Sequence record: PQ478073.1
Length of the DNA: 64,000 bases
From: a phage
Reading direction: 5' to 3' (one strand)
Part shown: positions 48,676 to 64,000 of the stretch, in pieces
How the letters are laid out: each line of letters begins with the position of its first letter
Position numbering within the stretch: position 1 is the stretch's first letter
Program-made: the position numbers and the translations under genes
Notes under the pieces: generated by a model
Seen by the model: only the letters and a program-made list of their open reading frames with translations
Database searches by the model: none
Told to the model about the DNA's origin: nothing

Positions 48676-48706
48676 AAACTATTTTAAAAGTATTTGTAGA
48701 AAGTAC

Positions 48707-48766
48707 TTGCACCGTACTGATAAAAGCGTATAATGTTTTACATCGAGAGCGGGAACACTTCCCGCT
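48707..48766 (+). promoter_or_regulatory. early-type promoter plus 5'UTR hairpin
   Basis: TATAAT 48729-48734; hairpin AGCGGGAA-cac-TTCCCGCT 48748-48766. Confidence 0.6.
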
Positions 48767-48789
48767 ACACATTAAGAGAGATTAAAACG

Positions 48790-49152
48790 ATGGCGACTCA
48801 AATCAATAAAATCATGCTTAACCTGGTAAACTTCCGCGAAGAGATGAAAGGTCTTCCGGCTGAAACTGTAAAAATTCACATTGCAGCTTATCGGGAACTT
48901 ATTGCAATGTTGCCGCTTAAGCGTGAACAATACGCCGCTACTTTGATGCTTGATTCAATGATCCATATAATGATCTCAAATGATTTGACGATGGTTTATC
49001 AGTATATGGGCGAAAATTTCGCGGTGTGTAGTAAGCCAGTACCAGGGATGGCAACTACTGAGGAATTGCACGGTTTAAATTTAAAACAAGATGCATGGGA
49101 TAATATGCCTCGTTTCCTGGTATGGGCTGACAGTGGCAAAATTTACAAATAA
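48790..49152 (+). CDS. hypothetical protein (120 aa)
   Basis: True start 48790 (MATQINK); track start 48733 is the ATG inside TATAATG. Confidence 0.55.
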   Translation: MATQINKIMLNLVNFREEMKGLPAETVKIHIAAYRELIAMLPLKREQYAATLMLDSMIHIMISNDLTMVYQYMGENFAVCSKPVPGMATTEELHGLNLKQDAWDNMPRFLVWADSGKIYK

Positions 49153-49166
49153 GTTTAATAAAGTAC

Positions 49167-49225
49167 TTGCAAACTATGTTTAATGGCGTATAATGTTTTA
49201 CATCAGGTGGGGAATAGTTCCCCAC
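49167..49225 (+). promoter_or_regulatory. early-type promoter TTGCAA-N16-TATAAT plus 5'UTR hairpin
   Basis: TTGCAA 49167-49172; TATAAT 49189-49194; hairpin 49207-49225. Confidence 0.65.
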
Positions 49226-49246
49226 TATATAAGAGGATTAAAAAAA

Positions 49247-49486
49247 ATGGCTAAATCAAAAATGTTCTTAGGTCACAAAAACAAAACTCATTGGAATGTA
49301 AGCCTGTGGATTAATAACGATGAGGGATTGTATCGGTTGGCCCTGGATTTTATTAACGATAGCACTAATCGCAATGATGCGGCCCGTCATATGATGTTAT
49401 TTTTAGAACAGACTGGACAAGATAAAACACCGGACGGATTCAAATATAGCACTACTGCGATCCGTGCGGCGATGGTTGGAATGTAA
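49247..49486 (+). CDS. hypothetical protein (79 aa)
   Basis: GAGG RBS; N-terminus MAKSK. Confidence 0.55.
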   Translation: MAKSKMFLGHKNKTHWNVSLWINNDEGLYRLALDFINDSTNRNDAARHMMLFLEQTGQDKTPDGFKYSTTAIRAAMVGM

Positions 49487-49571
49487 TAGAATTTATTTAA
49501 AGTACTATCATTTTTTGCGATAGTACTTTATAATAGTGTTTTATTCATACACCAACGATAAGGGCAACAGC

Positions 49572-49835
49572 ATGAATATTAAGTATTTTGCGACGCGTGA
49601 ACAAGCTCGGATCGCCGCTCGCCAGGACGGGGCAACGTTTAAAGATATGGGAGCGGGATCGGCAAGTGGTGAACGTTGGGCCATTGTAAAGCGTAGTACA
49701 GCCAGATCATTACAGTACTGGTTAGCGGCCTTAAAAAGTCCCGATAGTGTATCGCGTCGAGTGGTAGAAATAAAGCTCGACCGAAAGGGCAACCGCGTGA
49801 CCGTGTACCGTACTAAAAAGATTGCAGTACTATAA
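49572..49835 (+). CDS. hypothetical protein, family X (FATREQARI), paralogue of 60447..60842
   Basis: MNIKYFATREQARIAARQDG...RKGNRVTVYRTKK. Confidence 0.55.
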   Translation: MNIKYFATREQARIAARQDGATFKDMGAGSASGERWAIVKRSTARSLQYWLAALKSPDSVSRRVVEIKLDRKGNRVTVYRTKKIAVL

Positions 49836-49843
49836 AAAAGTAC

Positions 49844-49902
49844 TTGCAAACTATGTTTAATGGCGTATAATGTTTTACATCGAGAGCGGGAACACTTCCC
49901 GC
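49844..49902 (+). promoter_or_regulatory. early-type promoter plus 5'UTR hairpin
   Basis: TTGCAA 49844-49849; TATAAT 49866-49871; hairpin 49883-49902. Confidence 0.65.
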
Positions 49903-49923
49903 CTATAACCTGGAGTAATAAAA

Positions 49924-50154
49924 ATGACTAATATGTATATGACTGAAGTTAAAACCGTAAAAGATACTACCACGAATAAAACTACTTACTTACAGCGGAT
50001 CTGTGGTGTATGGCAACGTATCAGCAAATCAAAGTACTTTAAATTAACATCATATGCAAATCGTTCGGATTCATTCAGTACTGAAATAAAAGGTAATAAA
50101 GTACACCAATACGGCACTTATTATTATTACAGCCTGGACGCGATTGCAGTATAA
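49924..50154 (+). CDS. hypothetical protein (76 aa)
   Basis: GGAG RBS. Confidence 0.5.
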   Translation: MTNMYMTEVKTVKDTTTNKTTYLQRICGVWQRISKSKYFKLTSYANRSDSFSTEIKGNKVHQYGTYYYYSLDAIAV

Positions 50155-50236
50155 GCAGTTTACAAATCTTTACAATTGCCGGTATTGACTTATTTTGTCA
50201 GTACTGGCATAATGTATTCATTGGCAGATAAGCCGT

Positions 50237-61765: not shown

Positions 61766-62350
61766 ATGCGTAACTATACTAAATTCATCCGTTCACTTCA
61801 TGCAATGGAAACCAACAAAGAGATCCTTTCAGCTTGTCGGTTAGCTGGACTGGAGATCGTCGGTGCGGGTTCTTCCCGTATTGTATTCGCTTTAAATGAT
61901 CGGTTAGTGATTAAGGTCGCTAATTGTGATGCGGGTGTAGAACAAAATGAAACTGAATGTAAGGTATGGAATTTTTTAGATTATGACCGTCCGCACCTTA
62001 AACAGTACTTTGCAAAGGTGCATATGCATTTATGCGATCCTGATAATCTGTTTATTGTTATGGATCGTTTGAGTACTGCAAGCAAAGGCAGTGTAAAGCA
62101 TGTAAACGCGTGCAATGAGTTAAAGTACAATATTAAACGTAATACGGTAGAACGCCAACACCATTTCGCTGATGCTCTCAATCATGTTGATGATACATTA
62201 TCAACACTAACGATAAGAGATATCAGAAAACAGAATATCGGCCAGGATCGCAACGGCTTGATTAAAGTACTTGATTACGGTTTAACCCGCAATATCTGGA
62301 ATCAGTACTATAAAAAACGTGATGTTAACGCGATAACTATAACACGATAA
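61766..62350 (+). CDS. protein-kinase-like protein (194 aa)
   Basis: AAGGAG RBS; VIK lysine motif; DIRKQN catalytic loop; DYG. Confidence 0.5.
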   Translation: MRNYTKFIRSLHAMETNKEILSACRLAGLEIVGAGSSRIVFALNDRLVIKVANCDAGVEQNETECKVWNFLDYDRPHLKQYFAKVHMHLCDPDNLFIVMDRLSTASKGSVKHVNACNELKYNIKRNTVERQHHFADALNHVDDTLSTLTIRDIRKQNIGQDRNGLIKVLDYGLTRNIWNQYYKKRDVNAITITR

Positions 62351-62364
62351 AAAAGATTAAAAAA

Positions 62365-62389
62365 GGGATTGACTCCAGTCAGTCCCTTT
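62365..62389 (+). terminator. terminator GGGATTGACTCCAGTCAGTCCC + TTT
   Basis: Hairpin family copy. Confidence 0.6.
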
Positions 62390-62420
62390 GCTATTATATA
62401 TTCATTGAGAGATAACTCAC

Positions 62421-62435
62421 TGACCCATAGGGTGC
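62421..62435 (+). promoter_or_regulatory. palindromic operator-like motif TGACCCATAGGGTGC
   Basis: Motif family member upstream of A/T-rich -10. Confidence 0.4.
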
Positions 62436-62571
62436 GGAAGTGTATCTATTATATAAGTATTCAGTACTGAAAACTATTTTTAAAAAAGTACTTGCATTGT
62501 ACTTAGAATCAAGTATAATGTTTTACATAGAGAGGGGGAAATGGTTCTCCCTGGTAATAAGGAATAAAATC

Positions 62572-62793
62572 ATGACTACAATGACTTGCATTTACGCTTC
62601 CAATCTTCTGAATGATGCGGCCTTTAATGTTGATTCAGAATATCAATGTTATCGGGATGAAAATAAAAAAGTTTTTGTAGTTGATAATAATGGTTTCCAT
62701 ATTGAATTACAATCCGGTTTCACTGGTGTTGATGGTAAATCAGTGTGGGGCGTACAGGATGATAAAGGCACATATCATTTTAAACGTAATTAA
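62572..62793 (+). CDS. hypothetical protein (73 aa)
   Basis: ATG 62572; AAGGAA RBS. Confidence 0.55.
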   Translation: MTTMTCIYASNLLNDAAFNVDSEYQCYRDENKKVFVVDNNGFHIELQSGFTGVDGKSVWGVQDDKGTYHFKRN

Positions 62794-62877
62794 GTATTGA
62801 CAAAGTATATCAGTACTGTATAATAGTTTACATCAAGGGGAGAATAGTTCTCCCCGATACTAAAAGGAAACAAAATT

Positions 62878-63150
62878 ATGTCTAGTTACTCCGCTACTAT
62901 GATCATTAAAGATATGAACGGTAATCCTACTTCTGCTGGTGGATCATTTGGAAACATTAATTTAGATGGTCGGTTATCCATGCAATCAGCCATCGATGCA
63001 GCGAAAGAAGTTTTTAAGAATGAATGTACTGTTAGTAAGCTGGATTATATGGGATTCGCTATCGAGAAAACTAATCGTTTTGTGAACTACAAAAATCCAC
63101 TGATGATTGATACTAACCTGAAAGCTAACGAAGTGGGGTACTTATTATGA
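62878..63150 (+). CDS. hypothetical protein (90 aa)
   Basis: Cassette + AAAGGAAA RBS. Confidence 0.55.
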   Translation: MSSYSATMIIKDMNGNPTSAGGSFGNINLDGRLSMQSAIDAAKEVFKNECTVSKLDYMGFAIEKTNRFVNYKNPLMIDTNLKANEVGYLL

Positions 63151-63338
63151 CAGTAGAAGAAGTTAAAAAAGTACTGGCAGTACTACGCTATCATAATCAT
63201 TGCAAGGTGAAGAATGATCCTGATTATGTTGATTCATCCCTGGAGGAAGACACATTAAACGCAATAAGCCATATGCAAACATTAGCAAAGCGTATGACCG
63301 AAAAGAATAGACCGGACTATATCGGAAATAAAATTTAA
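63147..63338 (+). CDS. hypothetical protein (63 aa)
   Basis: ATGA overlap. Confidence 0.5.
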   Translation: MTVEEVKKVLAVLRYHNHCKVKNDPDYVDSSLEEDTLNAISHMQTLAKRMTEKNRPDYIGNKI

Positions 63339-63424
63339 AAAGTACTTGCATTGTAGTTAGATTAACGTATAATGTTTTACATAGAGCGGGGGAATAGTTC
63401 TCCCGCCAGTCCAGGAGATACACC

Positions 63425-63688
63425 ATGAACACTATCGAAATCACTATCAATGCACACGTATACGACAACGTAGTACTGCAAACTACTATGACCGCTAATG
63501 ATACCAGTACTTTGCGGAATACCGTTGTAAGTGCTGTATGTGCTGCAATCGGTGATGTAGCCCTGGAAAATGCAGAACACATCAACAACGGTTTCACTAT
63601 GTGCAAACGTGATAACGCAAAACATATCATCTTAGAAGGTTACGGCGGTGTAGAATATAATCTTTATATGAAAAAAGTACTTGCATAA
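63425..63688 (+). CDS. hypothetical protein (87 aa)
   Basis: Cassette + CAGGAGA RBS. Confidence 0.55.
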   Translation: MNTIEITINAHVYDNVVLQTTMTANDTSTLRNTVVSAVCAAIGDVALENAEHINNGFTMCKRDNAKHIILEGYGGVEYNLYMKKVLA

Positions 63689-63755
63689 TAACTAAAACAA
63701 AGTATAATGTTTTGCATAGGGGGAGATATCCTCCCCCACTAAAAGGAGTAATAAA

Positions 63756-63980
63756 ATGGCTAACTTTGATGAACTGATGCGGGAAGTAGCTAACCTGGCA
63801 GAAGAGAAGAAATCATTCGATTCTATCTATAACACCGCTCACCGTGATTCAGTACTGGCATGTACTCAGGATCAAAAAGATGAACTAATCGCCACATATC
63901 ATGAAGCATGGAAGTACTACCGCCAATGGGAGAAAGAAGAAAGCGAGTCTACCATCAACGGCATCAATAATCTAATCTAA
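63756..63980 (+). CDS. hypothetical protein (74 aa)
   Basis: Cassette + AAGGAG RBS; N-terminus MANFDEL. Confidence 0.55.
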   Translation: MANFDELMREVANLAEEKKSFDSIYNTAHRDSVLACTQDQKDELIATYHEAWKYYRQWEKEESESTINGINNLI

Positions 63981-64000
63981 AAGTTTTATTTCAGTACTAT

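Follow-up and report, generated by a model that had tools for sequence, protein, structure and literature searches.

Among the T4-like phages, mobile regulatory cassettes termed PeSL (promoter-early stem-loop) have been described (Arbiol et al. 2010, PMC2839356; Comeau et al. 2014, PMC4122927). We analysed a stretch of 64,000 nucleotides of phage DNA (record PQ478073.1, hereafter the window) and find in its last quarter, between positions 48700 and 64000, an array of small genes in which a stereotyped promoter is often followed by a hairpin in the transcribed leader. The PeSL cassettes are the closest described system, and the cassettes with a leader hairpin are an undescribed variant of these promoter–stem-loop units for gene shuffling.

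Both systems are built from a repeated intergenic unit of about 70-100 bp. It holds an early promoter of sigma70 consensus preceded by an AT-rich tract (35 plus-strand promoters here), a G-tract/C-tract stem-loop with G·T pairs (19 hairpins here, with folding energies of -9.4 to -15 kcal/mol), a Shine-Dalgarno sequence and an ATG. Both are found in hyperplastic regions rich in ORFans, that is, genes without known relatives, and in both the breakpoints of indels and replacements between close relatives fall into the units. Five of the testable features that define PeSL are found in the window and one, the placement of the stem-loop, is not. The PeSL stem-loop is found within the promoter or close to it, anywhere between a site upstream of the -35 box and one just short of the start site, so that only transcripts arriving from upstream are ended, and is described as a terminator, whereas the stem-loop reported here has a single fixed location within the transcribed leader and no run of T residues (T-run). 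PeSL cassettes are further characterised by excised mini-circles. The phage also belongs to an unrelated jumbo lineage, and its array appears to be part of a direct terminal repeat.

Hairpins in leaders and between genes are known from other systems as well. The 5'-terminal stabilising hairpins of the ompA type in E. coli mRNAs were reportedly worked out in the Belasco laboratory; protection of this type is given by a hairpin at or within a few (about 2-4) nucleotides of the 5' end. Like them, the hairpins in the window are stable, sequence-independent stem-loops which precede an exposed ribosome-binding site in the 5' untranslated region, but with the start site assumed below they would be preceded by a 5' tail of 1-7 nt (median 5). 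REP-type stabilisers and the hairpins left by RNase III processing of T7 early transcripts protect the upstream mRNA from 3' exonucleases. Here, too, GC-rich hairpins stand between tightly packed genes in units read through from several promoters. However, the stems are only 7-9 bp long and RNase III substrates need longer ones, for which reason an RNase III site was rejected; moreover, the hairpin is located downstream of AU-rich promoter DNA and not upstream. The lambda nut site with its boxB and the put sites of HK022 likewise place a hairpin in the early leader just 3' of a strong early promoter. There are one or two such sites per phage as against about 20-28 per genome here, and boxB, which is paired with boxA, is recognised through its conserved loop by an N-like protein. 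The loops of our cassettes come in many forms (cac, tag, cgg, atgg, atga, acatc and others) and are less conserved than any other part, and neither a boxA-like element nor an Rfam match was found. The fast evolution of the loops argues against a boxB-like loop recognition.

Nearer by descent are the RaK2-group phages CBB and GAP32 (PMC5259590) and PA5oct (PMC7318152). They share with our phage the clade and an RpoD-like promoter with an UP-like element, which clusters before short hypothetical genes within the terminal repeat or close to it, and for CBB (PMC5259590) and PA5oct (PMC7318152) the early genes are ascribed to RpoD-like promoters and the host polymerase. The descriptions of these three phages, however, mention neither a hairpin in the leader nor a cassette structure nor any part played in shuffling. 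Promoters are not a topic of the papers on phAPEC6 and fEgEco12.

Organisation of the cassette array

A Megablast search with positions 48700-56700 matched 133 phage records. On top are Asteriusvirus jumbo coliphages of 348-386 kb, with slurp01 (97%), JP4, 121Q and CMSTMSU as the best matches. Judged by this similarity, the stretch belongs to an Asteriusvirus jumbo coliphage of the 121Q/PBECO4 group. The matches are patchy, most records being covered to 50-88% and split into 5-12 pieces. In 121Q and slurp01 about 55 short hypothetical genes are lined up on one strand of the homologous stretch. For the linear genome of fEgEco12, position 1 aligns at position 46996 of the window with 97% identity. 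The direct terminal repeat of this phage measures 20,993 bp, as confirmed by restriction digestion (PMC13070987), and in the Klebsiella phage Muenster the equivalent block is annotated as a terminal repeat of 20,030 bp. Since the genome of fEgEco12 ends at this place, the cassette block would lie inside a direct terminal repeat of about 21 kb. An earlier interpretation made from the letters alone (the sequence-only reading) had given the block no such setting. With the repeat boundary of our phage placed by homology, the cassettes would begin 1.7 kb from the physical end of the genome and all genes would read inward.

We scanned the block from 48700 to 64000 for TTGACA or TTGCAA with at most one mismatch, a spacer of 16-18 nt and a TATAAT-like box, and dropped three likely false hits. 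This yields 35 convincing sigma70-type promoters on the plus strand, in a region which has 44 small plus-strand genes and is 71% coding. A second, independent tool scan detected 83 promoter-like sites as compared to 53 +/- 7 in shuffled sequences; its nine perfect 12/12 matches are all on the plus strand. Ahead of the TTGCAA or TTGACA all 35 promoters carry the AT-rich tract AAAAAGTAC. A stereotyped leader hairpin follows 19 of the 35 promoters (Table 1). The order of the elements is A-rich tract, AAAGTAC-TTGCAA/TTGACA, a 16-nt spacer (19 of 19 hairpin promoters), TATAAT (exact in 18 of 19), the consensus (G/A)(T/G)TTTACAT(C/A), G-rich/C-rich hairpin, Shine-Dalgarno sequence and ATG. Two more promoters, with -10 boxes at 50425 and 59576, have the same stem with a long loop of 12-13 nt, and promoter 52733 has a related long leader with no stable fold (-3.7 kcal/mol). 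The others belong to hairpin-less families, for example TTGACA-17-tgGCATAAT with an AU-rich leader or units of a type B.

Promoter scan and folding thus recover the module as it stood in the sequence-only reading, from the A-tract to the ribosome-binding site. Its frequency had been overrated, as more than 40 cassettes at nearly every small gene were claimed. Here there are 19 stereotyped hairpins and two long-loop ones, and in relatives the complete blocks have, per genome, about 24-28 stable leaders and some 45 promoters; the former count is therefore about two-fold too high. The stable leaders are concentrated in 48-64 kb (23 of 26). The remark that many products begin with MA(N/K) comes down to a mild enrichment, with MAN or MAK in 6 and MA in 10 of 44 products (one start corrected by hand).

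For the geometry of the leader we assumed that transcription starts at the A which is the eighth nucleotide past the -10 box. The leaders would then be 39-49 nt long. The hairpin begins 8-14 nt past the -10 box and would lie inside its own transcript at about +5 to +27. It had been placed at the start of the transcript; it does fall into the early leader, but it would not be terminal because of the unpaired tail. Stems of 7-9 bp enclose loops of 3-5 nt, and 17-23 nt separate the end of the hairpin from the ATG. In the computed folds the Shine-Dalgarno region is mostly unpaired, with a mean probability of 0.54-0.96. The folding energies of 42-nt leaders are bimodal: values of -9.4 to -15 kcal/mol, with z-scores down to -4.6, are reached by 21 G-rich hairpins, and most remaining leaders are at 0 to -3 kcal/mol. 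Type B leaders reach -7.5 to -11.6 kcal/mol with a different fold. The whole window contains 54 strong hairpins versus 3.8 in shuffles, and 20 of the 54 are located at most 20 nt downstream of a plus-strand -10 box.

None of the 19 leader hairpins precedes a T-run, and the leader hairpin is therefore not a canonical (Rho-independent) terminator. A terminator scan also calls none of the 19; its calls in the block are 60866, 51764, 52640 and 53366 as well as hairpins which overlap a -35 box. A scan for tRNA and tmRNA found none. Rfam gave no match at gathering thresholds and two chance-level matches only at E<=1.

Selection on the hairpin and exchange of the cassettes

A strict search of the window and related loci found 45 unique stems. 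CMSTMSU was left out of the strict counts; it is an UNVERIFIED_ORG record with fragmented-looking open reading frames and the source of both A·C mismatches. In a MAFFT alignment of whole leaders, hairpins with 3-nt and 4-nt loops were out of register. We therefore counted base pairs in loop-centred segments of equal length, of which the window and related loci provide 37 distinct sequences. Eight of nine stem pairs are altered on both sides, and compensatory cells number 53 as compared to 14 +/- 3 in shuffles, none of 500 of which reach this value. The covariation score is 0.555 versus 0.217 for shuffled sequences and 0.13-0.20 for slid partners. Thus the compensatory covariation on which the sequence-only reading had staked its hairpin is strong. 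Stems change in concert, as seen in GCGGGAA/TTCCCGC, GTGGGGAA/TTCCCCAC, GAGGGGAA/TTCCCCTC, GGGATGA/TCATCCC, GGGAAGTA/TACTTCCC and GCAGGGA/TCCCTGC. The Klebsiella phages Muenster and RaK2 (Alcyoneusvirus) have the same architecture, namely AAAGTAC-TTGACA, cAGTACTG-TATAAT, gtattaCAT, hairpin, AGGAG and ATG. At the same position they carry unrelated stems, which are GGAGATTCCA/TGGAATCTCC, GGGATACA/TGTATCCC, GGGAATGAA/TTCATTCCC, GGGGCAA/TTGCCCC and GGGAAATTA/TAATTTCCC.

The mismatches point in the same direction. The hairpins were searched with an equal penalty on every non-Watson-Crick pair. G·T mismatches occur in 13 unique G-rich stems, for which we estimate only about six independent events, and A·C mismatches in 2, both from CMSTMSU. 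In the 121Q orthologue of the cassette at 55852..55945, for instance, TTTCCTCT gives a G·U pair. Such a bias is predicted by selection on the plus-strand RNA, but not by a DNA palindrome. Per-site divergence over 89 orthologous cassette pairs is highest in the loops (0.164), followed by the spacer (0.115), third codon positions (0.102), the stem arms (0.07) and the -10 box (0.037). Because the stems covary, the sister genus keeps the position, G·T prevails over A·C and the stem arms diverge less than loops and third codon positions, the data support selection for a structure in the plus-strand RNA and not for a sequence-specific DNA operator.

We compared the synteny of the window with 121Q, slurp01, CMSTMSU and A4. 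The ends of colinear alignment blocks fall into cassettes in 42 of 66 cases, although the cassettes make up 23% of the sequence (p = 2e-12), and for clustered breakpoints this holds in 19 of 33 cases (p = 2e-5). Several neighbouring alignment blocks overlap by one cassette length. Most cassettes (28 of 35) have an exact match of 20-48 bp to another cassette. The best explanation is therefore that the cassettes act as recombination joints, a putative role in gene shuffling which the sequence-only reading had missed.

The cassettes are spread beyond the genus. A single cassette used as query matches 479 places in 51 records, including Salmonella and Klebsiella jumbo phages and rV5-like phages of 140-150 kb. 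The Vequintavirinae phage A73 has five genes of the window in a different order with 77-85% identity, and at least two of the five (window 53568-54081) come with homologous promoter-hairpin cassettes. The A73 gene at 4605 and the window gene at 56377 are orthologous and both products begin with MANIR, but the leader hairpins are unrelated, with GCGGC-aatag-GCCGC in A73 and GGGGAGAA-tag-TTCTCCCC in the window. Leader and coding sequence are therefore exchangeable independently. In IMG/VR the exact promoter-leader pattern is found in only 10 stretches, all on jumbo-sized contigs. In one contig of 358,663 bp the promoters are present and the hairpin is mostly absent; other contigs have the hairpin.

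Possible roles of the hairpin

On balance we favour the view that these are PeSL-like portable cassettes for early expression, with a hairpin that stabilises or insulates the mRNA; as to the hairpin itself, it probably does one or the other. The block would be an early region within the direct terminal repeat, transcribed by the host RNA polymerase. Each cassette of about 90 bp would provide an UP-like A-tract, a near-consensus sigma70 promoter and a leader of 40-50 nt, and in about half of the cassettes a stable stem-loop in this leader would go along with a ribosome-binding site that is kept single-stranded. The hairpin could make each small gene an autonomous unit which is independent of its context. 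As a stable folded end or barrier it could oppose the exonucleolytic decay of the mRNA and of read-through or processed fragments, and it could insulate the ribosome-binding site against any sequence that happens to stand before it. Such shielding would be needed by a cassette that keeps changing its neighbours. Via the cassette joints genes might be gained, lost and swapped among related and even unrelated phages, as in the PeSL elements. The sequence-only reading had proposed a shared signal for RNA-level control or stability. An RNA-level element is supported by the covariation, the G·T bias and the rates of stem evolution; stability is a plausible role, although some evidence speaks against its simplest form.

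Several points weigh against this view. With a single-stranded 5' tail, probably of 4-7 nt, the hairpin would not be a protective hairpin of the classic 5'-terminal kind. RNase E that scans from a 5' monophosphate is reported to get past simple stem-loops with ease (PMC9943677), which weakens the idea of the stabiliser as a scanning obstacle. The hairpin is absent from 16 of 35 promoters and from most promoters of the 358,663-bp contig, and therefore it is dispensable for early expression as such. The covariation sample was preselected for the presence of a hairpin and its copies are kin by descent. Because the cassettes make up 75% of the non-coding DNA, the enrichment of breakpoints is inseparable from a survival of breakpoints only between genes. 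Finally, the literature searched on the promoters and transcriptomes of Asteriusvirus, 121Q, RaK2 and phAPEC6 contains no description of the hairpin and no data on start sites, RNA ends or half-lives.

An attenuator of the PeSL type is unlikely, but of the alternatives it survives best. The stem-loop would mainly pause or partly terminate transcription coming from the many upstream promoters and from its own, which would level expression along the array and limit spill-over. A G-tract/C-tract stem-loop of a T4-like PeSL next to an early promoter cut lacZ expression as strongly as a strong terminator (PMC2839356). In the window, the same stem family followed by TTTTTT forms a textbook terminator at 60866, and the block has few canonical terminators. 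Against attenuation speaks that the T-run is missing from all 19 leader hairpins. Furthermore, the PeSL stem-loops are located at or upstream of the start site, while those of the cassettes are downstream of their own start site and therefore would attenuate their own gene too.

We see only a slim chance for a bolder reading, in which the leader hairpin is a mark whose shape is read by a phage or host factor on a defined subset of the early mRNAs of the terminal repeat. Such a regulon could be spared during the destruction of host mRNA or jointly switched off at the transition from early to middle expression, and the whole unit of promoter, hairpin and gene would be mobile among Asteriusvirus, Alcyoneusvirus and Vequintavirinae. 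Slimmer still is the chance of a shared RNA operator, whose shape is recognised by an RNA-binding protein or nuclease of phage or host, so that early mRNAs with a hairpin are switched off, processed or protected together. The position fixed relative to the ribosome-binding site, the 5' arm which is always G-rich and the 3' arm which is C/U-rich, the restriction to a defined subset of early genes and the selection at the RNA level would all suit an operator. A binding partner would however have to cope with loops that evolve fastest and vary in length and sequence and with stems that differ wholly between genera; no candidate binding protein was identified and there is no matching Rfam family.

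Hitch-hiking is unlikely and ranks below these readings. The hairpin would have no function and would be a passenger in a family of repeats which multiplies through duplication and gene conversion. The cassettes, with their exact matches of 20-48 bp, are clearly homologous repeats and the hairpin-less promoters work within the same block, but compensatory changes are frequent, the stems are conserved beyond the rate of third codon positions and the position is kept with new stems in another genus. The least probable explanation is a palindrome acting in the DNA, as a cruciform site or as an operator at which a repressor shuts early promoters from +5 to +25: the repeat does sit directly 3' of the start site, the classic operator position, and its arms are almost perfectly palindromic, but we rejected it since a single genome holds many unrelated stem sequences, the 45 unique stems of the window and related loci have no common half-site and the mismatches are strand-asymmetric (G·T and not A·C), and the loop length of 3 to 6 nt also speaks against it.

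Neighbouring features and wider meaning

Table 1. Cassettes with a leader hairpin and other features in the window (stem arms in tokens or capitals, loops in lower case)
Feature	Position	Strand	-10 box	Hairpin	ATG	Remarks
Cassette 1	48695..48792	+	48729	48748-48766 AGCGGGAA-cac-TTCCCGCT	48790	-35 box 48707; -12.5 kcal/mol, z -4.6
Cassette	49155..49249	+	49189	49206-49226 GGTGGGGAA-tag-TTCCCCACT	49247	
Cassette	49832..49926	+	49866	49886-49902 GCGGGAA-cac-TTCCCGC	49924	
Cassette	51193..51287	+	51227	51246-51264 AGCGGGAA-tag-TTCCCGCT	51285	
Cassette	51448..51540	+	51482	51500-51519 GGGGAGAA-atgg-TTCTCCCT	51538	terminal G·U
Cassette	51916..52004	+	51950	51964-51982 TAGGGGAG-cgg-TTCCCCTG	52002	
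Cassette	52232..52325	+	52266	52286-52302 GGGGGAG-cgg-TTCCCCC	52323	
Cassette	53535..53631	+	53569	53587-53606 AAGGGGAA-acgg-TTCTCCTT	53629	internal G·U
Cassette	53853..53944	+	53887	53905-53924 GGGGAGAA-atga-TTCTCCCC	53942	cassette and gene also in rV5-like phage A73
Cassette	55257..55346	+	55291	55307-55325 GGGGGAA-acatc-TTCCCCC	55344	
Cassette	55852..55945	+	55886	55905-55923 AGGGGAAA-cgg-TTTCCCCT	55943	
Cassette	56286..56379	+	56320	56338-56356 GGGGAGAA-tag-TTCTCCCC	56377	
Cassette	58405..58495	+	58439	58457-58475 GGGGAGAA-tag-TTCTCCCC	58493	
Cassette	58678..58769	+	58712	58730-58749 GGGGAGAA-atga-TTCTCCCC	58767	
Cassette	59928..60026	+	59962	59982-60000 GAGGGGAA-tgg-TTCCCCTC	60024	
Cassette	62480..62574	+	62514	62533-62552 AGGGGGAA-atgg-TTCTCCCT	62572	G·U
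Cassette	62785..62880	+	62819	62837-62855 GGGGAGAA-tag-TTCTCCCC	62878	
Cassette	63334..63427	+	63368	63386-63406 GCGGGGGAA-tag-TTCTCCCGC	63425	internal G·U
Cassette	63669..63758	+	63703	63719-63737 GGGGGAG-atatc-CTCCCCC	63756	
Double unit	50391..50583	+	50425 and 50543	ACGGGGAA...CTTCCCGT, long loop	50581	cassette-type promoter, about 85-nt untranslated leader with the hairpin, then hairpin-less promoter (second -10 box)
Double unit, second copy	59542-59732					
Double unit, variant leader	52699-52864					
Hairpin-less promoter family, example	54093..54177	+				TTGACA-17-tgGCATAAT, AU-rich leader; other -10 boxes 56632, 56910, 58022, 60393, 61179
Intrinsic terminator	60866..60890	+		GGCGGGAA-cta-TTCCCGCC-TTTTTT		stem family of the leader hairpins with T-run
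Other terminators	51764-51786, 52640-52661, 53366-53387					terminator scan
Early products with functional hints	57736-57993, 58057-58413, 61766-62350, 52323-52622					
Putative direct terminal repeat	46996..64000	.				by homology to fEgEco12 and the Muenster annotation; about 21 kb, extends beyond the window end

Besides the cassettes with a single promoter there are double units. Their untranslated leader of about 85 nt stands between tandem promoters (50431-50520 and 59582-59671, with a variant at 52739-52860) and contains AAGUA(A/G) three times, together with a conserved ACGAAAA. The rV5-like phage A73 has this leader too, with 89-93% identity. The consensus fold of this leader (type C) is weak, with -7.4 kcal/mol and two covarying pairs.

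Composites which are PeSL-like in the strict sense occur elsewhere in the window. In AAAGGGTTGAC-ttcg-GTCAGCCCTTTTT-gc-TATAAT the TTGAC of the -35 box is within the stem of a terminator with a UUCG loop, and such terminator-promoter composites are located between 10.5 and 24 kb at 10492, 13734, 13919, 15536, 16618, 21112, 22396 and 24116. Further PeSL-like units with a hairpin over the -35 box are found at 55724, 59417 and 62362. A different non-coding unit is present in ten copies, with its GGGTGC motif on the plus strand at 48259, 50245, 55792, 57474, 59480 and 62430 and on the minus strand at 48099, 48315, 50301 and 51831. Each copy has a sigma70 promoter, often with a terminator hairpin that carries the -35 box, and about 25 nt past the promoter CCCA(C/T)(A/C)GGGTGC, followed after 5-6 nt by GTATCTAT. 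These units contain no open reading frame and have no match to an Rfam family; they are conserved in two IMG/VR contigs of jumbo size and in Klebsiella phage Muenster. Each unit could represent a small RNA or a site for protein binding.

The hexamer AGTACT occurs 281 times in the whole window (1-64000) as compared to 21.8 copies expected from the base composition (12.9-fold), for example within AAAGTACTTG (17 times) and TCAGTACTGA (14 times). It is the sole enriched palindromic hexamer, and several GC-rich palindromes are absent. AGTACT is found in non-coding DNA and in coding DNA in all three frames, at about -38 and -16 of the promoters and also in the hairpin loops of Muenster. In loci of Asteriusvirus and Alcyoneusvirus it is enriched 13-22-fold, as compared to only 1.5-fold in the rV5-like A73. 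We found no explanation for this excess, neither ourselves nor in the literature.

Between the putative genome end and the first cassette (46996-48700) there is a 53-bp repeat with 2.6 copies at 48536-48675 (95% matches) and a group of 16/24/48-bp repeats at 47811-47910; these repeats may be linked to the terminus or to packaging. Further away, at 32076-40674, hairpins of the type ATGCCAGTAC-nnn-GTACTGGCAT are repeated between minus-strand RCC1-like paralogues. In the annotation of 121Q these tandem genes are "DNA condensation" proteins.

The early products tested match only PHROGs of unknown function, apart from a DksA/TraR zinc finger (E = 1e-11), a GNAT acetyltransferase domain (E = 5e-9) and a weak match to a protein kinase, the homologues of which in Muenster and fEgEco12 are annotated as kinases. 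The fEgEco12 homologue of one early product is labelled "spackle".

The finding does not open a long-standing question; it bears on the biology of a group with many uncharacterised genes. Jumbo phages of the RaK2/121Q group have hundreds of genes of unknown function, and those in the terminal repeat adjoin the physical end of the genome. If this end enters the cell first, the genes of the terminal repeat would be the likeliest candidates for host takeover and anti-defence. With a standard promoter-leader cassette, start sites and true start codons in this region can be annotated by rule, and the cassettes are a set of very strong, compact and natural expression parts. Clear mutational predictions follow from the covarying leader hairpin as an RNA element, and the cassettes explain the mosaicism of this region between phages which are otherwise nearly identical.

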